Source: a virus (taxonomy: Duplodnaviria > Caudoviricetes). Taken from it: DNA of 54,876 nucleotides. This document shows, one piece after another, positions 609 through 13,582 of this stretch (positions within the stretch are counted from its first letter, which is position 1; every line of letters starts with the position of its first letter). Made by a program: the position numbers and the translations under genes. Where the stretch lies: the IMG/VR virus record IMGVR_UViG_3300035126_000263, positions 1 through 54,876 of that record; one strand, 5' to 3'. A model generated the notes under the pieces. The model was not told where the DNA came from. It saw nothing but the letters and a program-made list of their open reading frames with translations, and made no database searches.

Positions 609-799
609 GGAAGCATTGAATCAATATCTTGTATCTGTGTCAATACTTTTGTTTCAGAAAAGTATTGGTTCATAATCTTGAGTCCTTCGTTGTGATAGTT
701 CTCTGCGATACAATACCTTTCCTTGTCTTGAGCTTCCCAGATTGCGTTTGCTGCCTCCAAATACTTCAACGCTTTTCCGTATGCTTGGTCGATTGTCAT
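605..799 (-). CDS. Hypothetical protein
   Basis: 64-aa ORF translationally coupled to dnaB and to the next gene. Confidence 0.7.
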   Translation of the reverse strand: MTIDQAYGKALKYLEAANAIWEAQDKERYCIAENYHNEGLKIMNQYFSETKVLTQIQDIDSMLP

Positions 800-2031
800 T
801 AGTATACCTCCTCAAGTTTTGAGATGTCACCACGCATGATGATTTCCGTAGAATAGTTCCTCTGCCCACGGCGGTTCTTCTTGATCGTCAACCTACTCTT
901 TTCCTTGATGTGTTCGATATACACTACTTGGTCAGAGTGCATTCCGATTGCCCGTGATTCGCGGAGTCTTCCTTCGTCATTAAGCTGAGAAGCTGTGAGC
1001 ATAATCGAGTTATTCTTGAGTGCCGCCAGTTTTAAGCGCCTTGCAATCTCTGAAATCTGGCTTTCCCTACCTTCTTCACCATCAGATGAGATAATTTGGA
1101 GGTAATCTACGACAATTACATCTGCCCGTTTTTCCCCCGTATACCGATTTATATGGCATTCTATCTCGTCAATTTCGGCTACTCCATCCACGATTTCAAG
1201 GGGTAACTGGTGTAATTTCAACAATGCGGCACTGATTTTAGCAAGTTCGTCTTTGTTTGCTGTCTTGTAATCTTCCGGTTCTCTGATCGGATACCCTGCC
1301 AAGTTGCAAGCCATGCGAGTTAGGATGTCCTTCGCTTTCATCTCAAGGCTGAAGAACAGAACCGACTTACCTTCTTCAAGATTTGCGAGTGCCGCTTGGA
1401 CGAGATAGATAGATTTACCACCACCAGTCTCTGATGCTACTGTCATCATCTCGCCTTTGTGCATTCCACCCTTCAGCGCACGATCTACTTTGAGTAATCC
1501 AGTAGGAAAGAAATCCTTTACTGCTTTTCCTTCCATCTCGTCGATGATTTCGATGATGAGGTCTTTGACTGGTTTCACTTTCGTCGTCCGATCTTCGGCC
1601 AAGTTCATTATCGTTTCCGATAATTCCTTCAGATTTGCTTTGCCTGTCCGTAGGTTTACTTCTTCCTTCTCCATGAGAGTAAGAACATCGCGGTATGCCT
1701 TCGTGCGGTGCAGGTGTTTCCGGTAGTCATCTGCCATGTCTTGGCAAACCTTACCCGAAGCTACCTTCATCGTGCATAATGTGTCGTGGACAGATTCTTC
1801 ACCACCCGCCGCTTCCAACTGCCCAGTTGCTTCAAGCTCTGCAATCGTAGAAAACGGGCAGCAAGACCCTGTCCGCTGGTGAACCCCTTGTAGCGCATTA
1901 AAAACGATTCTGTTGGCTGGTATGGCGAAATAATCGCTATCCCATGTTTGTTGGGAAAGGATGTTTCTGTCGATTGCGATGAGCGACAACGCTGCCGCTT
2001 CACTCTTTCGTGCTATTGGGACTTTTTTCAT
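799..2031 (-). CDS. dnaB: Replicative DNA helicase, DnaB family
   Basis: Walker A ASETGGGKS, FSLEM, VIVVDYLQI, SQLN..GRLRES, KNRRG motifs; DnaB-like N-terminal domain. Confidence 0.93.
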   Translation of the reverse strand: MKKVPIARKSEAAALSLIAIDRNILSQQTWDSDYFAIPANRIVFNALQGVHQRTGSCCPFSTIAELEATGQLEAAGGEESVHDTLCTMKVASGKVCQDMADDYRKHLHRTKAYRDVLTLMEKEEVNLRTGKANLKELSETIMNLAEDRTTKVKPVKDLIIEIIDEMEGKAVKDFFPTGLLKVDRALKGGMHKGEMMTVASETGGGKSIYLVQAALANLEEGKSVLFFSLEMKAKDILTRMACNLAGYPIREPEDYKTANKDELAKISAALLKLHQLPLEIVDGVAEIDEIECHINRYTGEKRADVIVVDYLQIISSDGEEGRESQISEIARRLKLAALKNNSIMLTASQLNDEGRLRESRAIGMHSDQVVYIEHIKEKSRLTIKKNRRGQRNYSTEIIMRGDISKLEEVY

Positions 2032-2864
2032 TAGAATGAATTGTTGTTATGGAATTTGTCTGGGTTGATTATGTTTTTTGAGCGGATGACCCAATTGGCG
2101 AGAAAGCCCCTCGTATATTTTCGATCTGGACGTGATAGCAACCAAGTCTGTGCAGCCTTAACTTCGCGTTCCACGTCTTTGTCTGGATTGAGACGCTGGA
2201 GTTCAGCGATAAATTTTTCGTCAACTGGTTTTGATTCCCGCGATTTTTTATTTCGTGGGGGGGCGGACGGCATTGGGGGGGTCGTTCCTTTGCCATCGGC
2301 AGATTTCAGTTCGGCGGTAGCTGAACCCGAAGCGTGAGCTTCATTTGGGTTAGTCGGGAAAAGATTAGTTTGAGTTGAGGAATGTGAGGCCACTGCCGAA
2401 CTTTCCCTTGATGGTTCTATTTTCGGTTCATTATGATGGTTCATTATAGATGGTATGAACTGGTTCATAGGGCGGGTGGTATGAACTGGGTTAGAGGGGG
2501 ATGGTGTGAACTGATTCATACCATCACTTGTCCTGTGCTTGCTTTTTGGTATAGCCAAATAGATCACATCCTTCGTCAATTCATCATCGCCAACTTTGTT
2601 CAAATTGAGCTTGTAGGTATTCGATGTTCGCCGCCCAACTGGGCTGAATCTCTCCTCCGCTTCAACCAATCCAATCTTTTCAAAAGCATGAAGAAACTTC
2701 CTTGTCGTTTCCTCGGATATATTCGCTTTCTTGGCAATAGTCTTAATTGACGGGAAGCATACTCCCTCATCACTGCAAGTATCAGCTAAAGACAAAAGAA
2801 CCAACCTTGCGTTACCTTGGGTCTTACTACGCTCAAAGACCTCTGACATTATTCGGACGCTCAT
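2031..2864 (-). CDS. Phage replication initiator (N-terminal HTH, lambda O-like)
   Basis: ARLVLLSLAD...CFPSIKTIAKKANISEETTRK...RTSNTYKL HTH typical of phage replisome organizers; directly upstream of dnaB; internal iterons. Confidence 0.8.
   Translation of the reverse strand: MSVRIMSEVFERSKTQGNARLVLLSLADTCSDEGVCFPSIKTIAKKANISEETTRKFLHAFEKIGLVEAEERFSPVGRRTSNTYKLNLNKVGDDELTKDVIYLAIPKSKHRTSDGMNQFTPSPSNPVHTTRPMNQFIPSIMNHHNEPKIEPSRESSAVASHSSTQTNLFPTNPNEAHASGSATAELKSADGKGTTPPMPSAPPRNKKSRESKPVDEKFIAELQRLNPDKDVEREVKAAQTWLLSRPDRKYTRGFLANWVIRSKNIINPDKFHNNNSF
2410..2523. repeat. Putative replication origin iterons inside the initiator gene
   Basis: TGGTATGAACTGG at 2451 and 2477, TGGTGTGAACTGA at 2502, inverted copies (TATGAAC-TG-GTTCATA), GGTTCATTA repeats at ~2425 and ~2438. 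Confidence 0.65.
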
Positions 2865-3142
2865 TTTGATCCTTCCTGCCAGTTTGCATCTTCATTCAAT
2901 ACCCACTTTATGGCGTTATTCAGTTTTAAGAACCGAAGTCCAACCAATGTCATAAAAGCGTTGTGAGCTTGCGTCTCTGTAATGCCAATTATGTCGGCGA
3001 CAGATTTGATGTCTTTTGCGTCAAAGCCACCATCGTAATTATCAATGACTGCGAATACTTGCTTCTTCTTATCGTCGATGATCGACAATCTGATTATTTC
3101 CTTACGAACGAAGATGCCTCCGTTCTTTTCTAATGGGTTCAT
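2861..3142 (-). CDS. Small winged-helix DNA-binding protein
   Basis: DIKSVADIIGITETQAHNAFMTLVGLRFLK HTH-wing pattern; ATG 3142 preferred over 3223 because the upstream part is a structured leader. Confidence 0.6.
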   Translation of the reverse strand: MNPLEKNGGIFVRKEIIRLSIIDDKKKQVFAVIDNYDGGFDAKDIKSVADIIGITETQAHNAFMTLVGLRFLKLNNAIKWVLNEDANWQEGSK

Positions 3143-3290
3143 TTTATAAAAGGCGACCCCTTGTGGCAGCGGATAAAAGCGGCAACTGACGCATGAAGGT
3201 GGATTACCACCACAAGGGATCATATAGTTTGTTTGTTAATTTAATTTTATCCTATCCGGCCTTCACCCCGGATGTGCAATTTCTCGCACA
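3143..3290 (-). promoter_or_regulatory. Structured 5' leader (attenuator-like) of the replication operon
   Basis: Two 5' hairpins (GAAA tetraloop; GGUGAAGG loop) and a 12-bp stem 3221-3210/3166-3155 followed by U-run. Confidence 0.55.
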
Positions 3291-3295
3291 ACTGA

Positions 3296-3324
3296 AAACT
3301 ACTATAGGTTGTGTTCGATGTCAA
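3296..3324 (-). promoter_or_regulatory. Sigma70-type promoter
   Basis: TTGACA-17nt-TAGTTT on minus strand. Confidence 0.7.
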
Positions 3325-3350
3325 GCATCTTTTTTTATCGGTTACGATAA

Positions 3351-3719
3351 TCAGTCCAGCGTAACTCTACCAATTTCACCATTCGACCAGTCATACATTC
3401 TGTTATTGAGTAGTTCCCAAATTTGGTTAGCGTCTTCAGTGGATTCGCATTGATAGGTTGCGCGTTTCTCTCCAACGCCTGTATCGGTCACAACAATATC
3501 AAGTCGGATTATTATACTACTATCAGTTCCGGTGGCTACGATGATAGCGGTGTGGTCTGGTTTGATTGCCATCACAAGAATACCATCCTCGTTTTCGTAG
3601 GTAGCCATAAACGGGGTGTCCAATGCACCAGATAAAGATATGTTTGCTATCAAGACGGAATGCCTAATTGCTGTAATCAATTTTTGTGCTTTATCGTTCA
3701 TTTCGTTGGTGTTATCCAT
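3351..3719 (-). CDS. Hypothetical protein
   Basis: ORF track 3351-3737; ATG 3719 chosen because it lies just after a -10 box (leaderless). Confidence 0.7.
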   Translation of the reverse strand: MDNTNEMNDKAQKLITAIRHSVLIANISLSGALDTPFMATYENEDGILVMAIKPDHTAIIVATGTDSSIIIRLDIVVTDTGVGEKRATYQCESTEDANQIWELLNNRMYDWSNGEIGRVTLD

Positions 3720-3727
3720 AAGCAACC

Positions 3728-3773
3728 AAAGTATCAAAAAAGTATTGACTTGTCAATAGTCTTGGTTTATTTT
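3728..3773. promoter_or_regulatory. Divergent sigma70 promoter pair with abutting -35 boxes
   Basis: Plus: TTGACT(3745)-17-TATTTT(3768). Minus: TTGACA(3756)-17-TACTTT(3733). The -35s form the palindrome TATTGAC-TT-GTCAATA. Confidence 0.7.
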
Positions 3774-3775
3774 TT

Positions 3776-4114
3776 ATGCAAATGAAACATCCATTAGAAA
3801 CTGCTTATGAATCCTGCATGAGTGCCTACGAGCAATCACGCACGATCCGTTCTCTTGGACGAAAGACTTTCGCCAGCCAGCTTCGTGAAACAAGGAGATT
3901 GCTGAAATTGACTGTCCGTGAACTTGGAGATAAGATCGGCGTTACAGGATCACTGGTCAACCAGATTGAAGTAAACTCCAAGAGTATCCTAAAGAAAGAA
4001 CAAGTCGAAAAAGTAATCGCCCTATGCTACAAAGAAAAACGCCCCTACAGGCAAAAACAGGATTTAAAAAGCGAGGCGGAAAGCTCAGAGCAGTCTCAAG
4101 CTCCCGAAGAGTAA
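3776..4114 (+). CDS. XRE/Cro-family HTH transcriptional regulator
   Basis: QLRETRRLLKLTVRELGDKIGVTGSLVNQIE classic HTH_3 pattern; start may be ATG 3782. Confidence 0.8.
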   Translation: MQMKHPLETAYESCMSAYEQSRTIRSLGRKTFASQLRETRRLLKLTVRELGDKIGVTGSLVNQIEVNSKSILKKEQVEKVIALCYKEKRPYRQKQDLKSEAESSEQSQAPEE

Positions 4115-4341
4115 AGAATGCCGACTACGAAAAAGTTAAAGCAGAATACTTTGAAGAAAAAAACTACCAGTGTGAGATATGTAATGGGCAAGGCACAGAC
4201 CTTCACCATAAGAAAGGAAGGGGCAAGTTCTTATGTGACAAGTCCTCATTCATGGTTCTTTGCCGCCCCTGCCACAATCGCTGCCACCACGAAGTAGGAT
4301 GGGCAAGAGAGAATGGATATATAATTTATGACTACAAATAA
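4024..4341 (+). CDS. Small HNH/Zn-finger nuclease-like protein
   Basis: CEIC...DLHHKKGRG...LCRPCHNRCH; basic N-terminus RKTPL. Confidence 0.7.
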   Translation: MLQRKTPLQAKTGFKKRGGKLRAVSSSRRVKNADYEKVKAEYFEEKNYQCEICNGQGTDLHHKKGRGKFLCDKSSFMVLCRPCHNRCHHEVGWARENGYIIYDYK

Positions 4342-4555
4342 TACGTTTGAATCCCGCATCATCTGCGAGGGAACTGAAGTAACCAATACACCAGAGAAGA
4401 TTCTGTTTCGTCAGAAGTTCAATCAATGTTGGGTGAAGAAAAGCGACATCCGACTGCATGAAACCATTGGACATCTTGACGGAGAGAAGATGATCCGTAT
4501 TGTAGTTCCAGAAGAAGTAGCGAATACTTTGGAACTTGAAGGAATTCTTGATTGA
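4328..4555 (+). CDS. Hypothetical protein
   Basis: 75-aa ORF overlapping the previous stop. Confidence 0.65.
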   Translation: MTTNNTFESRIICEGTEVTNTPEKILFRQKFNQCWVKKSDIRLHETIGHLDGEKMIRIVVPEEVANTLELEGILD

Positions 4556-4564
4556 TCTTTGAAA

Positions 4565-4835
4565 CAATTTGTCACGTTCTTTTGCCAGACGAACGTATTC
4601 ATCCAATTCGGATTGGGCATTCCCGACGAGATAGTAGATGTAGAAAAGCGCACAATGGCAACATGGATGGCCAAGGGACATCAATTGTGCGGCGTGACAA
4701 TAACTTTACTGGGAAGCATGGAGTCATGCAGCTAACTGCGAGCTTTGAAGTAGTCTTGTGTAAAGTGGCAAAAAGAGCCAAACGGCAATACATGGGGCCG
4801 TAACTAAAACCATGACCAAGAGTAACGCCTTGGCC
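4565..4835 (+). ncRNA. Candidate structured non-coding RNA
   Basis: Nested stems 4569-4578/4691-4700, 4650-4656/4684-4690, 4703-4709/4760-4766 plus at least 5 local hairpins; G-U pairs favour the plus strand. Confidence 0.55.
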
Positions 4836-4840
4836 CAGTA

Positions 4841-6715
4841 TTACCAATCTCCGTTATCGTCTGATCCGTAGTCATCGTCTTGAGTGGTATCAATTGATAC
4901 CTCATCCCGCGCCCAGAATCGGTTAGTTGGAACTGGTTTATCGTTACCGATAAAAACAAGTCCATTACGCCGCGCCATTTCGAGGGCATAGATTAAGCTA
5001 TCACTCAAGTCGGGCGAGTATCCCGTTCTTCCTTTAAGCTCATCTTTAGTCTCAATAGCAATCTTCTTGGACTTGATCGTGTATCGGCGCAGGCAAAGTT
5101 CCCGCGCCAAATCTGAAGCAGGATCAATCCCAAAGATAACGCGACTCTTAAAGGCGTGATAGGCCGAGTAGTAGTATTCAGACACAAGCCTATCGTAAAC
5201 ATCCTTACACGGGCGTTTATCAACCTCTGCCGCGATTCGGTCAGTAGGTTTACCCATAGATGAGATAAGAGCGATAGCGGCCCCAGAAGCGTCAAAACGT
5301 AGCCACTCACGAATGATAGCTTGCCCAACTCGCCCACCATCACCGGACACGTCCATACCAAACTTAGATGGCTGAACGCCAGCCGCGCGGCACAACTCAA
5401 CAACTTCAGTAGCAAGTTGGATTTCAAACTCGGCAGCGGCATTAGCAGATAGTTGAATTACCTTCTGACTTTCCAACCACATAACACGATTGCGAGTTCC
5501 GCGCACGAACCCAAGTTTAGCGATAGTAAGAACGCATCTGTCGCCGCCAATTGTAAATGCGGTGTCAAAGCCAGCCACCTTAGTAAAGCCCTCGGAATCC
5601 CATAATGGTTCTTCGTTGGTATCAGCATTACGAATCAAATCAGCAGTAAGAATGGTCTGAGCGAATCCAGATTTTGGCCACCAACCGATAGCGTTACGCA
5701 CATAGTCAATTGCATTCTCGTCTCCATAACACAACTTGAGCATTTCCTGTTGCTTCTCCCGATCCATAAGGAATGGAAATGGAGATGGTTCATTTGGAGG
5801 CGCGGCGAAGTTTGGGCTACGCATACCGTTGTAGAACAAGCAAACGCCAGTCTCGGTTTCCCACTTATCCATATCTGGACTGACTGAATCAAAGTTAGAG
5901 CAACCTTTAGGCATAGCCCAACGGGTATGTGGGTTATCTCCAGCGGATGGGTTTCCAATACCTATGAATGTCTTGTCATTGTTTGATGCTAAGTTGGTTC
6001 TTGCAGTAATCGCGCCCAGTTCCATTTCGGGTAACTCATCAAGTGCAAGGCGAACTCGATCATTCTTACGACCACGGGTGGTATCAATAGCTTTCTGACC
6101 TTCATTACCTGATTGAAATGCGAGAGCTTTAATAGCATTTCGGTAGTCTTTATCCTCATCGTTAGACGCGCCACCCCATACAATCATATGACGATAGTCG
6201 ATGAGTTTACCTATTTGAACGCGAGCGCATTTATAAAGTTTGGAGATGATACCCCAGATACGATCTTCGGATGCACCCAAAGTGGTAGTGGCTACCCAAG
6301 ATGAAGTGCAATGCGGGGCAGAACACCAATCAAGATAGACCCAAAGACCAACTGGAAAACTTTTTCCCATCGAAGCGGCTCCGGCCAAACAGATGTCAGT
6401 ATTACTACAAAGTTCATCGAGGGTTCTCAGCAATTGGGTATTGGTATAACCACGATTGACAATAGAAACTTCAGTTGGCCATTGGAGCTTAACTGCATTT
6501 ATAAAATGCTCAGATGGGGAAAGTAGTTTAAAATCTGAAAGATTTATATTTTTCCTAACACAATAAGTTCTACCATATTGCCCTCTGCTTATTGCATAGC
6601 AAAACAACTCAATACCAAGATCGTCCATGTTTTCTGGAAATTGCATTCCGTAACGACGAATACCTTTGTTTGAAGAAAAAACTCTTGACATATCAATAGG
6701 AAAATATATTTTCAT
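4841..6715 (-). CDS. terL: Terminase large subunit
   Basis: Walker A LAGAASMGKS, Walker B LALDE, GIGNP motif, RNase H-like nuclease AGFDTAF.GGDRCV and SPDLSDSL; start may be ATG 6691. Confidence 0.88.
   Translation of the reverse strand: MKIYFPIDMSRVFSSNKGIRRYGMQFPENMDDLGIELFCYAISRGQYGRTYCVRKNINLSDFKLLSPSEHFINAVKLQWPTEVSIVNRGYTNTQLLRTLDELCSNTDICLAGAASMGKSFPVGLWVYLDWCSAPHCTSSWVATTTLGASEDRIWGIISKLYKCARVQIGKLIDYRHMIVWGGASNDEDKDYRNAIKALAFQSGNEGQKAIDTTRGRKNDRVRLALDELPEMELGAITARTNLASNNDKTFIGIGNPSAGDNPHTRWAMPKGCSNFDSVSPDMDKWETETGVCLFYNGMRSPNFAAPPNEPSPFPFLMDREKQQEMLKLCYGDENAIDYVRNAIGWWPKSGFAQTILTADLIRNADTNEEPLWDSEGFTKVAGFDTAFTIGGDRCVLTIAKLGFVRGTRNRVMWLESQKVIQLSANAAAEFEIQLATEVVELCRAAGVQPSKFGMDVSGDGGRVGQAIIREWLRFDASGAAIALISSMGKPTDRIAAEVDKRPCKDVYDRLVSEYYYSAYHAFKSRVIFGIDPASDLARELCLRRYTIKSKKIAIETKDELKGRTGYSPDLSDSLIYALEMARRNGLVFIGNDKPVPTNRFWARDEVSIDTTQDDDYGSDDNGDW
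6685..6712 (+). promoter_or_regulatory. Sigma70-type promoter for the head operon
   Basis: TTGACA-16nt-TATTTT upstream of ATG 6728, overlapping the terL 5' end. Confidence 0.55.
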
Positions 6716-6727
6716 TTCAAAAGCAAG

Positions 6728-7105
6728 ATGAAACTAAAAAACAAAAACCTCGCACCAATCGGCGGCTGGTTCTGGAAATACGAAATCAAGCGCGATAAAC
6801 TCACATTCCCTGCAATTGTTCATGGTAGCACATGGAATTCCTTGATAAAAAATATCGAGAAAGACTATCGCTCAAATAACATCGAACTTCCTACTAACAT
6901 CGAAGAGATGGTTGAAGATCAAATCTGCCAGCGTCAACCAAGTGATCGTTGCTGGTATAGTGATGGACTTGGAGACAAGATCGCTCAAGCCATCCATACA
7001 GTTGCAGCGGTAACTGACAAAGTTTTGAAAACTAAACTTGAACAGAAAGCTAAAATATGTCCTTCATGCAATAAACGTAGGGCCGTATTGAATAAATTAT
7101 CCTAA
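6728..7105 (+). CDS. Hypothetical Cys-containing phage protein
   Basis: QICQRQPSDRC and GLGD...CPSCNKRRAVLN motifs. Confidence 0.75.
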   Translation: MKLKNKNLAPIGGWFWKYEIKRDKLTFPAIVHGSTWNSLIKNIEKDYRSNNIELPTNIEEMVEDQICQRQPSDRCWYSDGLGDKIAQAIHTVAAVTDKVLKTKLEQKAKICPSCNKRRAVLNKLS

Positions 7106-7117
7106 AAGATAAAACAT

Positions 7118-9613
7118 ATGCTTTCCGTAGGTAACGACCAATTTTCACTTGCTGTTTTAGATCAAGATGGCAAACCACCCGAAACGCGAATCTCCAACGC
7201 GAACCACGCTTGGAACATAGCAAATCATTTGCGACTCGCTAACATCGGGCGTGAGAATAAGCGTTTACGTATATACAAAGCATACAAATCTTTCCCCCCT
7301 ACAGGATACAGCAAGCTTGCCGAAAAACGTTTGCCTTGGCAATCTGACGTTAACTATGGACAACTTAGTTTTATTGTTGATAACCAGAAGTCCAGTTACT
7401 ACGATGTAATTACGGAACGGCAGGCTTGCTGCACGATCAAAAGTAAATTTGGCAATGAAAAAGAACGCCTCGTTAACTCAGAGAACATTGCAATTGCATT
7501 TGACCAAGCAATCCGTGAATGGCCCGGATACCTCTACAACACAGAGCAAGACCTTGAGGAAATGTTGCTGTATGGAAAAGGAATTGGAATGTGGGATAGC
7601 CCACTCGGATGGATGCCAGAACACGTTTACCTCTCCGACCTTCTTTTTCCAGATGACATTAGGATTGACTTTTGCAACCTTGAAGAGTTTGTGCGCCGTG
7701 TCCGTTTGACACCATACGAACTCTACAAGAAGATCGAGAATCGTGCAGCGGCAGAAGCAATGGGATGGAATGTGGACGCAGCAATTGATGCTATCCGTTT
7801 CCATCGTGCATTCAGCAACCATCGTAAGACCCGTGAAGATTTCTTCCGCACGATTAGCGAATCTGGATTCAACTGGTCACTCTCCGTAAACCAAAAGATC
7901 GACCTCTACGAAGTTTACTGGAGGGAGTTCGACGGAAAGATCAGCAAGGCGATTATCCTTCAAGACTATCAACCAATCTCGGATTACATCAACTCCAATA
8001 TCAAAGGAGCAGGCAAGATCAGCGAAGATGACATCAGAACCCAGCACGGGTTTATGATGCTCAAGGTAGGACTCTTCAACTCATGGGATGAAATCATGTA
8101 TATGCTCACCGATTCGGTTGGCAGCGGACTCTTCCAAGACATCAAGAGCCAAGCGGAGTCGGCGTTCGTCGCCTGCCGTCAGTATGACTTCACGATGAAC
8201 TCGCTGGTTGATGCAGTGCGCCTCAACTCCATGTTGATGATCGAAGGGCAAGGGCCAGACGCAACTAAGATGTTGAAGCAGATGGAATGGTTGCCGATCA
8301 GCGTCATGCCAGACGGGGCGAAGTTCATCCAGAACCGCTTCCAGCTTCCAGTAGCAGAAAGCATGAGCTTCATGCAGTTCTTCATGGGAGATATGTATCG
8401 CGGAATGGGTCAGTATCGCATCAACGCTCCTACTGCTGGAGGAAAGCAACGCACTAAAGGTGAAGCTGAATTGGATGCGGCTGAGTCAGCTAAACTATCT
8501 GGAACTCAGATTCGTCGATTCAACGAGTGTCAAACTCTCTACTTCAAACAACTCTACAAACGCTTCGTAAACGCAAAGTCCAGCGATGATGGATACGAAT
8601 ATGTGAAGAAGTTCTATGAAGTATTGGAAGAACTCGGCACTCCGAAAGAAGCCGCTGCTTGGAAGAACATCACAAGCATCCGTTCTAACCTCATCAACGG
8701 GGCTGGCAGTCCGTCATTCAAGCTCATCACGGCAGAGAAGCTATTGAGCATTACAGCAATTACTCCAGCCAATGAAGGGCAAGAGAACGCAGTTAAAGAT
8801 GCAATCGCGGCACTCTCTGGCAGGGACAACGTAGCTCGTTACCGGAATACCAAACCAACAAAGATTACTGATACTGCTCGCGTAATTGGATTTGAGAATG
8901 CTGGCATGACAGATGCGTTCGTTAACCCTCAAAACTTCCCAGTATTGCCAACTGATCCACATATCGAACACGCAGTTGGTCACTTGCAGGACATGATGAT
9001 GCAGTTGCAGATGAACCTGCAATCCGTGCAACAAGGTCAACCAGAGCTTGCAGAACTTTCCAAAGCAGTCCGCTCAGTCAAATTCAAGGGTGGTCACATC
9101 ATGGCGCACGTTGAATATATCAGTAAAGACCAATCCAAGCAGGACTTCTTGAAGCAATTCATGCAGGGAATGAATGAAGCGCAAGCGATGGCCGACGAAC
9201 TTCAACAAGTTTACGTCCAAATGGCTGAAGCTGAAGCTCAGAAATCTGGTCAACCTAACTCCGAGGAAGACATTAAACTTCAATACCTTGCTGCTAAATC
9301 TGGCATCGAAATCGACACCAAGAAGAAGCTTGCTGACATCTCGATTGGCAAGGCTTCTATCAGTCACGCTCAACGCACCGAGCAGCGTAAGGAGCAAGGC
9401 ATCACTCAACTCGCACTTCAGAAGGCTAAAGCTCGCGCTGAAATTCAAAAAGAGAAATCAAAGCAAGCAGCAATGCAAGGCAAAGCTCCAGAGATGGAAG
9501 AGCCAAAGATGGAAGAAGAACCAGAAGAAATGGAGACTGAAACCGAAGAGGTTGATACTCCAGAAGAAACTGAAGAAGTTGAGATGGAAAATAATATCAC
9601 ACCAATGCAATGA
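7118..9613 (+). CDS. Portal protein
   Basis: 831 aa, lies between terL and scaffold/capsid; LLYGKGIG segment, Q-rich helical barrel and acidic tail as in P22-like portals. Confidence 0.75.
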   Translation: MLSVGNDQFSLAVLDQDGKPPETRISNANHAWNIANHLRLANIGRENKRLRIYKAYKSFPPTGYSKLAEKRLPWQSDVNYGQLSFIVDNQKSSYYDVITERQACCTIKSKFGNEKERLVNSENIAIAFDQAIREWPGYLYNTEQDLEEMLLYGKGIGMWDSPLGWMPEHVYLSDLLFPDDIRIDFCNLEEFVRRVRLTPYELYKKIENRAAAEAMGWNVDAAIDAIRFHRAFSNHRKTREDFFRTISESGFNWSLSVNQKIDLYEVYWREFDGKISKAIILQDYQPISDYINSNIKGAGKISEDDIRTQHGFMMLKVGLFNSWDEIMYMLTDSVGSGLFQDIKSQAESAFVACRQYDFTMNSLVDAVRLNSMLMIEGQGPDATKMLKQMEWLPISVMPDGAKFIQNRFQLPVAESMSFMQFFMGDMYRGMGQYRINAPTAGGKQRTKGEAELDAAESAKLSGTQIRRFNECQTLYFKQLYKRFVNAKSSDDGYEYVKKFYEVLEELGTPKEAAAWKNITSIRSNLINGAGSPSFKLITAEKLLSITAITPANEGQENAVKDAIAALSGRDNVARYRNTKPTKITDTARVIGFENAGMTDAFVNPQNFPVLPTDPHIEHAVGHLQDMMMQLQMNLQSVQQGQPELAELSKAVRSVKFKGGHIMAHVEYISKDQSKQDFLKQFMQGMNEAQAMADELQQVYVQMAEAEAQKSGQPNSEEDIKLQYLAAKSGIEIDTKKKLADISIGKASISHAQRTEQRKEQGITQLALQKAKARAEIQKEKSKQAAMQGKAPEMEEPKMEEEPEEMETETEEVDTPEETEEVEMENNITPMQ

Positions 9614-9855
9614 CAACCGAAAAAGTAAAATCCCTATGCGCGGCAATAACCTCACACGAAGACTGGAACAAACTACAGGCGTATCTGCTGCTTAACGTAA
9701 ACCCACCAGAAGGAGTAACCACGCTTATCCATGCAATCAAAACTATTGATGCTATTGGAACGGAAGAGCAAGGAGCATTCAAAAAAACAAAAGTTGCTGG
9801 AAAGCATAAAGAGCCAGCGGACATCACTGTTGACCCAGACCTCGACGAAATCTAA
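9610..9855 (+). CDS. Hypothetical head-module protein
   Basis: ATGA-coupled to portal. Confidence 0.7.
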   Translation: MTTEKVKSLCAAITSHEDWNKLQAYLLLNVNPPEGVTTLIHAIKTIDAIGTEEQGAFKKTKVAGKHKEPADITVDPDLDEI

Positions 9856-9858
9856 TTT

Positions 9859-11142
9859 ATGGCAGACACAAACGACACAGCAGACGTAATCGCGGAACTG
9901 AAATCCAAACCTCAAGTTCCGATTAAAGGTAACACATCTGACTTCCTCAAGAAGTTCAGTAAACAACAATCCGACGAAGGCAAGCCAAGTGCTACCAATG
10001 TTGGTGATCCTAACCTTGGAATAGCAAAATACAATGAAGAAGAACAATCAGAAGAATCAATGGGAGTTAGTGAGTCAGAAATCACATCTGACCGAACAGG
10101 AAAAAAGAAAGGCTTTGTTGAGCGACAAATCGAAGAAAACCGCAAGCTCAAAGAAGAGTTGGAAAAATACAAGAAAGACGAAATTCCCAAGTTTGAAACC
10201 AAAATCCAAGAACTTGAGCGAATGGTTTCCGAGTCAAAATCGACGGCAGAAACCAATCATTACCAAGATCAACTCAACAAAGCCAACCAAGAAAAGCTGG
10301 AAGTTGAGCAACAACTATCAGAACAAATCAAAGAGTTGCGTAGTAAGCTCGATTTCCACGACATCACAAGCAATCCAGATTTCAAAAAGAATTACCTCGA
10401 TCCTATCAAAAGCACATACGATACTGCGAGGCAGTTGCTATCGAATGATCCAACGCTTCTTTCAACTTTCTCCCGTGCTGTTAATGCAAACGCCTCCATC
10501 TTCAATTCGGCCTCCGAAGAAGACCGTAGAGCGGCAGAAGCCGACCGCGATCAAGCGTTCGAAGAAATCACGAACTCGCTCTCGCAGTTCAAGCAATATC
10601 AGTTCGCAGAGCAAGTCAACAGCTTCATCAAAGCAACTCAAAGCCACCATTCAGCTCTTGTCAACTTTGAAGAAACCAAGCAGAATATACTTCAAACCGC
10701 TAAACAAAAAGAGCAAGAAGGCAGGAACAAGTATCTGAACCAGTGGCGTGAAGGCTACAAGAATACTCAGCAAGAGATTGATCGGGCGACTGAAATCCCA
10801 GATACGATTGCTGACTACATGAAGGAGAAGGGAATCAAGTATGACATCTCCCGCGACGAGGCTATTGCTTTGGCGGCTACCCAGCAGACCAATGAGCAGG
10901 CATCAGTTGAAGACATGAACCGACTGATCCACCAAGGCCGCGCCTATCAGAAGATTCAAGCACAACTGAAAGCATACCAAGAGATGGTAAAAGAAAAAGA
11001 TGAGTATATCGCACAACTAAAAGGTTCGTCGCGCATCTCATCATCATCAAGTGCATCGGATTTCCAGAAACCAAGAATGAGCATTACGGAAGGACTGGCT
11101 GCTAAACTTGCGAAATTCTCACCGCAAGGTCGAACAGCATAA
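9859..11142 (+). CDS. Putative capsid scaffolding protein
   Basis: Charged coiled-coil 427-aa protein immediately upstream of the major capsid gene. Confidence 0.65.
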   Translation: MADTNDTADVIAELKSKPQVPIKGNTSDFLKKFSKQQSDEGKPSATNVGDPNLGIAKYNEEEQSEESMGVSESEITSDRTGKKKGFVERQIEENRKLKEELEKYKKDEIPKFETKIQELERMVSESKSTAETNHYQDQLNKANQEKLEVEQQLSEQIKELRSKLDFHDITSNPDFKKNYLDPIKSTYDTARQLLSNDPTLLSTFSRAVNANASIFNSASEEDRRAAEADRDQAFEEITNSLSQFKQYQFAEQVNSFIKATQSHHSALVNFEETKQNILQTAKQKEQEGRNKYLNQWREGYKNTQQEIDRATEIPDTIADYMKEKGIKYDISRDEAIALAATQQTNEQASVEDMNRLIHQGRAYQKIQAQLKAYQEMVKEKDEYIAQLKGSSRISSSSSASDFQKPRMSITEGLAAKLAKFSPQGRTA

Positions 11143-11169
11143 GCCTTACATTCTAAAGTCTGGCATAGA

Positions 11170-11214
11170 TGGGGGAGGTAGTTTGTCGCTGTTCTACCTC
11201 CCCCAATTTTTTTT
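11170..11214 (+). terminator. Rho-independent terminator
   Basis: GGGGGAGGTAG...CTACCTCCCCC followed by T8. Confidence 0.8.
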
Positions 11215-11225
11215 AAAAAAAACTC

Positions 11226-11445
11226 TTGACATAGTAAATAGGTGATTGCAATGTCCAGCGCAAGAGATATACGAAATTATCGTTTACGATAAAATTAGTG
11301 ATTCAGCCGTACTCTGGCTGGCGAGTATCAGCACTCGCATCAAAAGCTGTTTCCGGACTGGTCTTGAAAAAGACACCGAGGGTTGAACTCCGGCTCGAAA
11401 ACAACAAGCATTCGCTTGGGGCTTTCGGGCCTTTTGCGTTTGTAA
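11226..11445 (+). promoter_or_regulatory. Capsid gene promoter, palindrome site and structured 5' leader
   Basis: TTGACA at 11226, palindrome at 11277, consecutive hairpins 11294-11435 with GAAA and UUCG tetraloops. Confidence 0.55.
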
Positions 11446-11494
11446 ACCAAACTAAAACCAAAACCAAAAATCAAACTCAAACAAAATAAATATT

Positions 11495-12907
11495 ATGGCA
11501 TCAGATCAGCTATATTTCAATTCGTGTGCTGAGATTGACAGTTTCTTCCGCGAGGGCCGCGAATATTTCAACGACCTCTACGTTAAGAAGCTCGTCACCA
11601 ACTCTGCATATTTCACCCGTTTCGAGGAGCAAGCATGGCCTCTTAACCACACAACCGAACAGAAAGCATTCCGCTTTGGCCGTGGATTCCACGATCCTTG
11701 CGCTCCTTTCCGCACGATCACCGACACCTACTGCGAGACTGATTCTTGCGATAGCAAACCCGAAGTCATCCAACGCCCCGGAACCGAGAGCTACACTTTC
11801 GAGCTTCTCCGTAAAGAGATGACCACTGACTGGATTTGCGTTGAGAGCCTTCTTTATCGCCTCTTCCCCGCTGAAGAGATTCTCCAGTTCGAGGAGTCGA
11901 ATGCCCGTATCACCAAGAACGTCCACGAAGAGTTCCTTCGTTCCAACTACATCGGTGGTTCTGGACACAAATGGATGGGCATCACCACGGATGACGGCAC
12001 TTACTGCGGACTCGTTGACGATGCAGCATGGTTCGTTCCAGAGCATACGCTCAACAACGAAGCTGGCTACGACCTCTGCGCTCTTCGCGTTAAGATGGCT
12101 CCAGCCGACCTCAACAAGATCGCTTATCTCTCGCTTGATATGCTCGACGATGCACTCGTTGACCTCCAAGACGAAGATGACGCTTTCCGTCTTGATCTCC
12201 AAGATGCGACTGGTCAGCCTCTGCTCGACATCGTTATCCCTGATCCTCAAGTTGGCCGTGCGCTTTACTTCCAAGCCAAGCGCAACAATGGTTACTGGGA
12301 TGCTAACACGGATTTCGACGAGCGTCTCACCCGTTTGAAGCTCGGCATCAATCGTATCATCGGTGACTACGCCTTTGGTTACGACATCAATGCCGCTCGT
12401 TTCAACGCTGACACTGCCTTCAACGCAAGCCTCGCTCCATTCAATGAAGCTGATCCTGCGACATGGGCGCGTCTCGTCCGCGTTCCTCGCTACATCAAAG
12501 TGGTGATGGAAAACGGCTGCTCGTATGTTCCTAACAAAGCCTACCGCAATGCCGACTTCGGTATCTCGGTTGCTATGGTCAACAAAGCAATGTGCAAATG
12601 GACAATGCCATCCTCGACTGGATACGGCCAAGCCCAACAGATGACCCAGAACTACGCTGGTGATTGGGAATGGAAGAACCCAGATTGGGAGTGCAACCGC
12701 TGGCGCAAATCGGGCTTCTATCAAGCCCAGTTCCGTCTCGCCGCACAGGTCAAAGACCCAACCATCATGCACTCGTTCCTGCATCGCCTGCCTAAGAGCA
12801 AGAACCTCTATGGTTCCTGCTGCCCAGTTCAGAGCTACATCGTTCCTGAAAACAATCAGGACTGCTATAGCTGCGCTGGTGTGGGTGACATCGTTGTGCC
12901 TTCCTAA
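11495..12907 (+). CDS. Major capsid protein
   Basis: 470 aa after the scaffold gene, strongly biased codon usage, own leader and downstream hairpin. Confidence 0.75.
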   Translation: MASDQLYFNSCAEIDSFFREGREYFNDLYVKKLVTNSAYFTRFEEQAWPLNHTTEQKAFRFGRGFHDPCAPFRTITDTYCETDSCDSKPEVIQRPGTESYTFELLRKEMTTDWICVESLLYRLFPAEEILQFEESNARITKNVHEEFLRSNYIGGSGHKWMGITTDDGTYCGLVDDAAWFVPEHTLNNEAGYDLCALRVKMAPADLNKIAYLSLDMLDDALVDLQDEDDAFRLDLQDATGQPLLDIVIPDPQVGRALYFQAKRNNGYWDANTDFDERLTRLKLGINRIIGDYAFGYDINAARFNADTAFNASLAPFNEADPATWARLVRVPRYIKVVMENGCSYVPNKAYRNADFGISVAMVNKAMCKWTMPSSTGYGQAQQMTQNYAGDWEWKNPDWECNRWRKSGFYQAQFRLAAQVKDPTIMHSFLHRLPKSKNLYGSCCPVQSYIVPENNQDCYSCAGVGDIVVPS

Positions 12908-12967
12908 GTTAAATAGGGGAGGGGCTTATTCAAGCCTCTCCCCACAACCTTAAATAAAATACAAAAT

Positions 12968-13582
12968 ATGTCTAATTCACGACCACTCGCTTATGATCGC
13001 GTCAACCTGTTTGGCCCGATTGCCGTTAACCTTCTCGCTACTGGAGACGCTGACCTCCTCGTCCTTAACGACGAAGACACTAAGTTCTTTCCAACAAGCA
13101 TCGTTCTGGAAACTGCCTACGCTCGCGGAACTACTGCCACCGATCCAGTTGTGATCGTTGACAACGGAACTACTGGCGAAAACATCACTTCCTCGCTGAC
13201 CATCACGGACGCTCTTGATAACCAAGGACGCTATAACCCAATGGCACTTGTGGCTAATCCATTCGTCATTACTGGTTCTGGCAAACTTCGCTTGGTGAAA
13301 TCCACTGTTGGTGCTGGTCAAGCTACTGCAACTCGTTCCCGCACTTCGGGCGTTGCTACAATCGTTACCGCCGCTGCTCATGGCTTTGCCACGGGCGACA
13401 CGATCACGATTGCCAGCATGACTGATACTTCGTTCAACGACGTGCAGGCTGAAGTTACAGTTGTTAACTCAACTACCTTCACCTATGCGAACGCTGGTGT
13501 GAATGTTGCTTCCGGTGCTGATACTGCTGGACGTGTTGGCGCACTTTACGTGAATGCCTACGTTGTTGGCATCTACTACTAA
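12968..13582 (+). CDS. Putative capsid decoration/minor head protein
   Basis: Thr/Ala/Gly-rich beta protein right after the capsid gene, same codon bias; ATIVTAAAHGFATGDTITIA motif. Confidence 0.55.
   Translation: MSNSRPLAYDRVNLFGPIAVNLLATGDADLLVLNDEDTKFFPTSIVLETAYARGTTATDPVVIVDNGTTGENITSSLTITDALDNQGRYNPMALVANPFVITGSGKLRLVKSTVGAGQATATRSRTSGVATIVTAAAHGFATGDTITIASMTDTSFNDVQAEVTVVNSTTFTYANAGVNVASGADTAGRVGALYVNAYVVGIYY

Follow-up and report, generated by a model that had tools for sequence, protein, structure and literature searches.

What is encoded in the 285 nt (positions 4556–4840) that lie exactly between the convergent stop codons of ORF75, an open reading frame (ORF) of 75 amino acids (aa), and terL, the gene for the large terminase subunit, in the Caudoviricetes record IMGVR_UViG_3300035126_000263? 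This virus record, analysed over its whole length of 54,876 bp and referred to as the window, is complete and carries direct terminal repeats. A preliminary description of its sequence had proposed a single multibranched RNA of ~270 nt at this site, possibly tied to packaging. Comparison with other phages leads us to prefer, with a probability of roughly one half, a reading in which the gap carries two independent, exchangeable accessory small-RNA cassettes on the plus strand (modules A and B), and neither one 270-nt RNA nor a packaging element. Conserved helices with compensatory changes, plus-strand polarity, presence and absence in many combinations, and occurrence in other genomic contexts underlie this reading.

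Every stem named in the preliminary description is present in the window: one of eight Watson–Crick and two G-U pairs (4569–4578/4691–4700), the hairpin CCAAU-UCGG-AUUGG (4603–4616), CGCACAAU (4649–4656) with AUUGUGCG (4684–4691), ACUUUAC (4703–4709) with GUAAAGU (4760–4766), the hairpin GCAUG-GAGU-CAUGC (4716–4729), and three further hairpins (4766–4780, 4783–4800 and 4816–4833). Judged on one sequence, these stems do not exceed chance. On the plus strand, the 282-nt stretch containing them folds with a minimum free energy of −65.2, the average for shuffles being −72.1 (z +1.44) and 188 of 200 shuffles folding as well or better, and on the minus strand z is 0.01. Folding energy thus matches that of shuffled sequences, an outcome which the preliminary description had itself named as counting against its proposal, and the case therefore rests on comparison.

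Module B emerged from this comparison as a unit closed by the conserved stem UACUGGG/CCCAGUA. This stem replaces the pairing 4703/4760 that had been taken to enclose a second domain of the larger RNA; the latter is complete (7/7) in the window type only, and at most 5/7 positions pair in 13 of 17 arm combinations. Across 28 distinct sequences, 97.8% of cells pair, and RNAalifold independently predicts the same helices. In a set of 26 sequences of one hairpin type, drawn from the terL clade of the window and from a second phage lineage described below, 99.3% of 878 cells pair, 10 pairs (61 cells) are changed on both sides and the hairpins are kept in 26/26 sequences; none of 500 shuffles reached the observed pairing, and slid controls gave 17–36%. 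The closing stem turns into UACGGG/CCCGUA in the second lineage. A variable hairpin occurs as CUAC/GUAG, UUGC/GCAA, CUGC/GCAG or UCGC/GCGA, or is replaced outright by GCGUAA/UUACGC, a UGGC hairpin is kept, and the terminal stem Pg appears as CCAAG/CUUGG, UUGGU/ACCAA, UUGGU/GCCAA or UUGGG/CCCAA. An H-type pseudoknot is formed by CGGC/GCCG (S1, 4 pairs) and CAUGG/CCAUG (S2, 5 pairs), with all cells paired; its covariation is thin, S2 reading CACGG/CCGUG in two sequences (one pair changed on both sides) and containing one U-G. A candidate extra pseudoknot of four pairs would join AGCU with AGCU in one hairpin type and UGAG with CUCA in the other, at different columns.

Module A occurs as eight variants of the window type, almost identical to one another, and as four diverged forms (L047, L237, L251 and L252), those of L251 and L252 being short and devoid of the central hairpin. 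A covariance model (R1) built solely from the four diverged forms, and hence from no window-type sequence, was searched against 314 kb and matched positions 4569–4700 of the window over its full length (41.5 bits, E 2.9e-8). As a MAFFT alignment (A2) misaligned the helices, a model-based alignment (A4) was used, in whose 11 distinct rows 97.1% of 243 cells pair and 13 of 27 pairs are changed on both sides, a level of pairing or covariation reached by none of 500 shuffles (slid controls, 28–53%). Covariation falls in the closing stem, the 3′ helix and the apical hairpin. A hand-made helix table yields the same helices, every pair standard or wobble: the closing stem occurs as UUGUCACG/CGUGACAA, UUGCCCG/CGGGUAA, UCCCCG/CGGGGA and UUUUCCCG/CGGGGAAA, and the 3′ helix as CGCACAAU/AUUGUGCG, CGCAGUA/UGCUGCG and UGUAGUAG/CUACUACA. 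A 21-mer of the L047 type matched its own contig only.

Strand polarity had previously been read from G-U extensions of the stems, and the alignments bear out the plus strand: one-sided changes in module B comprise 11 G-U or U-G cells against one C-A cell, and module A holds 17 wobble cells. The suspicion that the overlapping ORFs are not genuine likewise held. Neither module contains a conserved ORF, and a coding signal is absent. Among the 28 module B sequences, whose lengths are 132, 133, 134 and 136 nt, no frame is open in more than eight. In the six A-B spacers of 285 nt, none of the 10 variable sites falls at a third codon position of either window ORF, and the stop codon of ORF 4552–4803 is changed in 5/6. 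Conservation of that ORF with synonymous bias and without covariation had been put forward as the finding that would speak against a structured RNA; here, the helices covary and the ORF is not conserved.

Between its two anchors, the spacer is variable. From 274 relatives of terL in viral contigs, 80 were kept, and later additions led to 136 loci with both anchors, not deduplicated by contig (ORF75 was located in 138 loci by tblastn); modules were annotated with regular expressions of our own. These 136 loci hold 64 distinct spacers of 0–1423 nt in 28 module orders. Module B is present in 41 of the 64, T in 37, H in 17, A in 8 (plus one divergent A2), C and D in 7 each, E in 3 and F in 1. Units in the arrays span 75–190 nt, and module junctions are T-rich in all spacers read. 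B-T and T-B as well as H-B and B-H are found, the window being A-B; module B lacks A in 32 of the 41 distinct spacers that contain it, and B follows A in 9/9 A-containing distinct spacers of this clade. Four distinct spacers, accounting for 17 of the 136 loci, measure 0–2 nt, with abutting stop codons, intact terL and no module. Neither the window genome of 54,876 bp nor the flanking sequence of 80 related loci contains a second copy of any module. The pool to which the cassettes appear to belong has no fewer than eight members (A, B, T, H, C, D, E and F), which are gained, lost and reordered at one hot spot and common to distant phages.

A second phage lineage, identified in metagenomes and by a further viral scan (L230, L236, L237, L242, L247, L249–L253 and L255), has a DnaB-like helicase gene that is followed, on the same strand, by arrays such as D-B-(C)-H. 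Its helicase is 22% identical to that of the window, and the nucleotides of module B are 77–79% identical. The array of L251 includes a tRNA whose CCA end is encoded, located behind the same AATTTA linker, and in L241 a tract of 17 tRNA genes predicted by ARAGORN encloses a module T (~9151–9243) in the same orientation. An A-type module stands alone in L237 between two ORFs, ~1.5 kb downstream of the B-containing array. Second-lineage arrays begin with unclassified conserved hairpin units, GUUAACAUU..AAUGUUAAC and GGGC..GCCC (e.g. L250:1930–2200, minus strand), which suggests that the cassette pool is larger than eight. Homologues of ORF75, HNH and XRE were absent from the second-lineage stretches examined, and a functional tie of the modules to these three genes was rejected. 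Taken together, two conserved plus-strand elements, their non-coding nature, cassette turnover, the presence of the same modules in distant phages and their common orientation with tRNA genes lead us to infer small accessory RNA genes.

Table 1. Features of the ORF75–terL spacer and its surroundings in the window
Feature	Position	Strand	Basis or remark
Module A, structured RNA cassette	4569..4700	+	Covariance model R1 match, pair counts, helix table
Module A H1	4569-4576/4693-4700	+	Closing stem
Module A H3 hairpin	4603-4607/4612-4616	+	
Module A H4	4649-4656/4684-4691	+	Internal loop GGCAAC 4657-4662
Module A H5	4666-4669/4679-4682	+	
A/U-rich linker between modules A and B	4701..4706	+	
Module B, structured RNA cassette	4707..4840	+	Alignments A1 and A5, pair counts, RNAalifold
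Module B Pa	4707-4713/4834-4840	+	Closing stem
Module B Pb	4716-4720/4725-4729	+	GCAUG hairpin
Module B Pc	4735-4739/4750-4754	+	
Module B Pd	4766-4769/4777-4780	+	
Module B pseudoknot S1	4783-4786/4797-4800	+	
Module B pseudoknot S2	4791-4795/4810-4814	+	
Module B Pg	4816-4820/4829-4833	+	Loop AGUAACGC 4821-4828, conserved
Linker TGATCTTTGAAACA, boxA-like word	4553..4566	+	Overlaps ORF75 stop codon
Terminator-like hairpin for terL	4814..4835	-	GGCCAAG..CUUGGUC then AUGGUUUUAG; reverse complement of Pg and flanks
ORF75, 75 aa	4328..4555	+	ORF list; conserved left anchor of the variable spacer
terL, large terminase subunit gene	4841..6715	-	phrog_2, E 8e-08; convergent with ORF75; conserved right anchor
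XRE-type helix-turn-helix gene	3776-4114	+	Upstream of ORF75
Small HNH nuclease gene	4024-4341	+	Upstream of ORF75; 215 nt before spacer
Replication-initiation O-like protein gene (phrog_391) and DnaB-like helicase gene (phrog_19)	799-2864	-	Divergent from the XRE-HNH-ORF75 unit

Searches for known families assigned the modules to none. Rfam 15 (4227 models) gave no match at the gathering threshold in the window, the first check that the preliminary description had proposed, nor in 20 related loci, and permissive scans with E up to 10 (window 3500–6000, L020 5850–6270 and L065 5860–6110) returned chance matches to small nucleolar RNA, microRNA and leader models, far below threshold. The GOLLD and ROOL models did not match, nor did the ribozyme models (hammerhead, twister, pistol, hatchet and hepatitis delta virus (HDV)-like), even with E up to 10 on short stretches. 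The window contains no tRNA gene by ARAGORN and no Rfam tRNA match, and blastn against annotated phage records found no DNA similar to the gap region. A Y-RNA/Ro or RtcB connection was dropped, the window genome having no TROVE or RtcB gene. Word searches were of little help: a 19-mer of module B had six matches in genome contigs, all in G+C-rich coding sequence without module flanks and read as chance, and a 15-mer of module T matched mostly coding sequence by chance in viral contigs, full copies being confined, among the matches listed, to the terL clade. In the literature, no description of the modules or of such arrays was found, outside the motif tables of PMC10690425; that paper catalogues 10,006 candidates for structured RNAs from viruses, IMG/VR included, and may list the present motifs.

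How might such cassettes be expressed? The preliminary description placed the RNA at the end of the XRE operon, and the position downstream of XRE-HNH-ORF75 agrees with this. Because a consensus scan detected no plus-strand terminator-like site in 4556–4840, the array could be transcribed as an untranslated 3′ extension of the XRE-HNH-ORF75 transcript. Host RNases would then cut it at the A/U-rich linkers in the fashion of a tRNA precursor, and the released RNAs of ~130 nt would act in trans as dispensable accessory factors. Their most likely role, suggested by their accessory, fast-turnover nature, would be to serve, in a phage–host arms race, as decoys or ligands for proteins of the host that bind or cleave RNA.

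The boxA-like linker could help transcription through the array. The word pointed out earlier is indeed there, its 10-nt core TGATCTTTGA lying at 4553–4562, and this 10-mer recurs on the array strand in both lineages; its single occurrence in the window is not above chance (0.54 expected), which leaves it as a lead. GATCTTTGAAA agrees with 8 of the 10 specified positions of the boxA consensus GYTCTTTAANA (PMC5725501) and falls short of the full consensus, from which that of the host may differ. As at boxA/Nus sites of ribosomal RNA operons and lambdoid phages, the U-rich GAUCUUUGAAA would head a long untranslated structured transcript, for which protection from Rho would make sense.

RNA libraries were searched as assembled contigs. 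A 244-nt contig from a run labelled freshwater metatranscriptome joins 15 nt of the ORF75 end to all of module B (two differences) and 89 nt of module T, and in two other RNA libraries contigs of relatives connect 4557 directly to 4841. In the four runs compared with the window, no contig covered module A, and parts of the flanks were likewise bare, an absence that carries no weight; nor do the small word shares of such runs indicate a habitat. Module-bearing and module-free forms thus coexist; transcription does not follow from these contigs.

Several of our results weigh against the reading as two accessory RNA cassettes. Beyond the unremarkable fold of the whole stretch, module A taken alone is no more stable than shuffled sequence (z −0.12), and the excess stability of module B is mild (z −1.80; 10 of 200 shuffles fold as well). 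Alignment A4 was fitted to the structure of the model and hence leans towards it. Covariation stems from three main lineages in module A, and in module B from two phage lineages and hairpin swaps, so that cells outnumber events in both. Without a plus-strand terminator-like site, the array runs into terL antisense. Since modules are absent from 17/136 loci, they encode nothing essential. The 244-nt contig hints at expression, but DNA may be its source and its ends may reflect breaks in the assembly. A decoy role in trans is putative, no partner protein, target or cleavage site having been identified.

A bolder extension, which we offer as a tentative and rather doubtful proposal, would make the locus an RNA anti-defence island: a mobile combinatorial pool of at least eight undescribed compact small-RNA classes, traded among unrelated lake phages and able to take the place of tRNA genes or be replaced by them. 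Each class would neutralise or exploit a different host system that binds or cleaves RNA. Some of these might be new ribozymes, and one would have a tRNA-like acceptor stem followed by NCC.

Repetitive extragenic palindromic sequences and bacterial interspersed mosaic elements (REP/BIME) of enterobacterial intergenic regions are mosaics of palindromic units often found between convergent genes, where they form simple hairpins in hundreds of dispersed copies. Their mosaic, variable composition resembles that of the spacers, and the modules might, in the same manner, act in cis as the ends of transcription units, serving as terminators, insulators or 3′-exonuclease blocks for the convergent ORF75 and terL messages. 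Their exact position between two convergent stop codons fits this alternative, as does the closure of every module by a stem followed by a T-rich linker; moreover, Pg read on the minus strand is a terminator-like hairpin 6 nt past the terL stop. We nevertheless consider it unlikely. The consensus scan of 3500–7200 yielded three terminator-like sites against a shuffle mean of 3.2, and the four distinct spacers of 0–2 nt do without any hairpin. A terminator has no need of conserved loops and junctions or of the pseudoknot in module B, and the same modules, module B with its Pg hairpin among them, occur elsewhere between co-directional genes and inside tRNA tracts. Unlike REP/BIME, they occupy one locus per genome, with no dispersed repeats, and have complex folds.

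Less probable still are catalytic or self-mobile RNAs: the modules would then represent new classes of self-cleaving ribozyme by which the array is cut into units, or would resemble introns and spread as RNA. Each module combines a small conserved core with variable peripheral hairpins, B contains a pseudoknot and H another as read from its sequences, and cassettes are common to phages with helicases of 22% identity. In L237 (1880–2700, minus strand), ~720 nt split module H at the base of its variable stem; this insert contains small ORFs, in the way that intron loops can, and a promoter-like sequence. CxxC pairs are present in one of its ORFs, and the 153-aa ORF has no Pfam or PHROG match. 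Theta ribozymes have been reported beside phage tRNAs (PMC10879173), and clusters of small self-cleaving ribozymes in phages share with our arrays small RNAs with conserved cores, adjacent to tRNAs, several kinds lying close together. The modules differ from these in matching no Rfam ribozyme model at E up to 10 and in showing no cleavage-site signature, and eight new classes at one locus would be improbable. A hammerhead reading of CUGAUGAG/GGAUGAG in module H failed, since GAA is not adjacent to stem II and the word is better read as a helix strand in which GAUG pairs with CAUC. For module T, a likeness to twister or HDV ribozymes was rejected on the order of its elements and for want of an Rfam match.

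Cassette-like gain, loss and reordering at one site would also be expected of modules acting as DNA, either as attC-like recombination or insertion sites or as hairpins of a replication origin. The HNH gene close upstream of the spacer in the window and the replicative helicase adjoining the second-lineage arrays can be cited in its favour, together with protein-coding cargo in some spacers: in L084 (4409–5604) and L095, B-T is followed by a TTGACA..TATAAT-like promoter and an ORF of ~1.2 kb, rich in G/T/N repeats and tail-fibre-like by eye, and in L091 and L099 a different insert of ~450 nt precedes a remnant of the terminal hairpin of module B. We regard this possibility as very improbable, as wobble pairs are consistent on one strand only, loops and the module B pseudoknot are conserved, the modules have the same orientation and linker as tRNA genes, the neighbours scanned include no integrase or recombinase, and the second-lineage stretches examined lack ORF75, HNH and XRE. 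The single RNA of ~270 nt tied to terL and packaging, for which the presence of all its stems and the constant succession of A and B in the clade could be invoked, is scarcely tenable given module B without A, the solitary A-type module of L237, modules apart and reordered in other genomes, a fold of z +1.44, spacers of 0–2 nt and module arrays beside a helicase gene instead of terL, and a small protein from ORF 4552–4803 or 4599–4847 fares no better in view of the third codon positions and the changed stop.

Set against known systems, two accessory RNA cassettes have partial parallels. The packaging RNA of phage phi29 is a structured molecule of ~120–170 nt that works with the packaging ATPase and is essential and universal in its phage group; the modules are missing from 17/136 loci, occur away from terL and match no Rfam family. 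The tRNA cluster of phage T4 encodes species 1 and 2 RNAs, small, stable RNAs of unknown function, co-located and co-processed with tRNAs. By description, the only level at which they were compared, they resemble the modules as small phage RNAs beside tRNAs and differ in being fixed genes instead of a variable cassette pool. ROOL is ~580 nt in length. Both ROOL and GOLLD are described as RNAs of phages and prophages that in many cases lie close to tRNA islands and whose function is unknown (PMC12286853). Like them, the modules are phage-encoded, accessory and in part pseudoknotted, with module T in a tRNA tract and a tRNA inside one array; in contrast, GOLLD and ROOL are single RNAs, GOLLD often exceeding 800 nt (PMC12286853), and the cassettes are many unrelated units of 75–190 nt in combinatorial arrays.

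Accessory regions of phages are usually read as protein-coding "moron" genes and tRNAs, and the present one is a hot spot of RNA cassettes. Eight or more distinct families of folded RNA, all absent from Rfam 15, turn over here among near-identical phages and are common to distant ones. If expressed, they would offer a natural comparison of related phages with or without each RNA, from which the role of each could be sought, as well as new folds for structural study, including pseudoknotted ones, and a way to ask if RNA other than tRNA serves phages as an exchangeable weapon against their hosts. The locus also illustrates that a "multibranched RNA" called on a single genome can hide modular units which only comparison makes visible.

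Further observations concern the neighbouring genes and individual modules. ORF75 has neither a Pfam nor a PHROG match. Inside it, a promoter-like TTGACG-16-TATTGT (4476–4503, plus strand) lies ~50 nt before the spacer and could start the array independently; counts of promoter-like sites in the ORF75 region equal those of shuffles. The XRE and HNH ORFs overlap by 91 nt as listed (4024–4114), and the true HNH start may be further downstream. The L241 contig (13.9 kb, from a metagenome; 2700–13200) has its 17 ARAGORN tRNA genes on one strand, to which Rfam adds further tRNA matches, and a tmRNA-like match (transfer-messenger RNA; 10482–10898) of 42.6 bits, below the threshold of 47. The first hairpin of module D (GUUCUCUGCC-AGA-GGCAG; e.g. 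L065:5873–5945, minus strand) resembles the repeat hairpin of type I-F CRISPR (clustered regularly interspaced short palindromic repeats); mimicry in the sense of an RNA anti-CRISPR is unsupported, as L065 5860–6110 gave no CRISPR direct-repeat match with E up to 10. The module D stem covaries, CUGCC/GGCAG being CUUCC/GGAAG in L239. A GC-GUA-GC triloop hairpin recurs in modules H and E and in the short A form. In module T (e.g. L027:3422–3492, minus strand, and L239:2239–2308, plus strand), 32 of 34 distinct copies carry (A/U)CC after a closing stem of 6–7 bp, GGUCGG/CCGGCC, recalling a tRNA acceptor end with discriminator and CC, and an alternative local hairpin, GCCGAG-UUAA-CYCGGC, competes with this stem.

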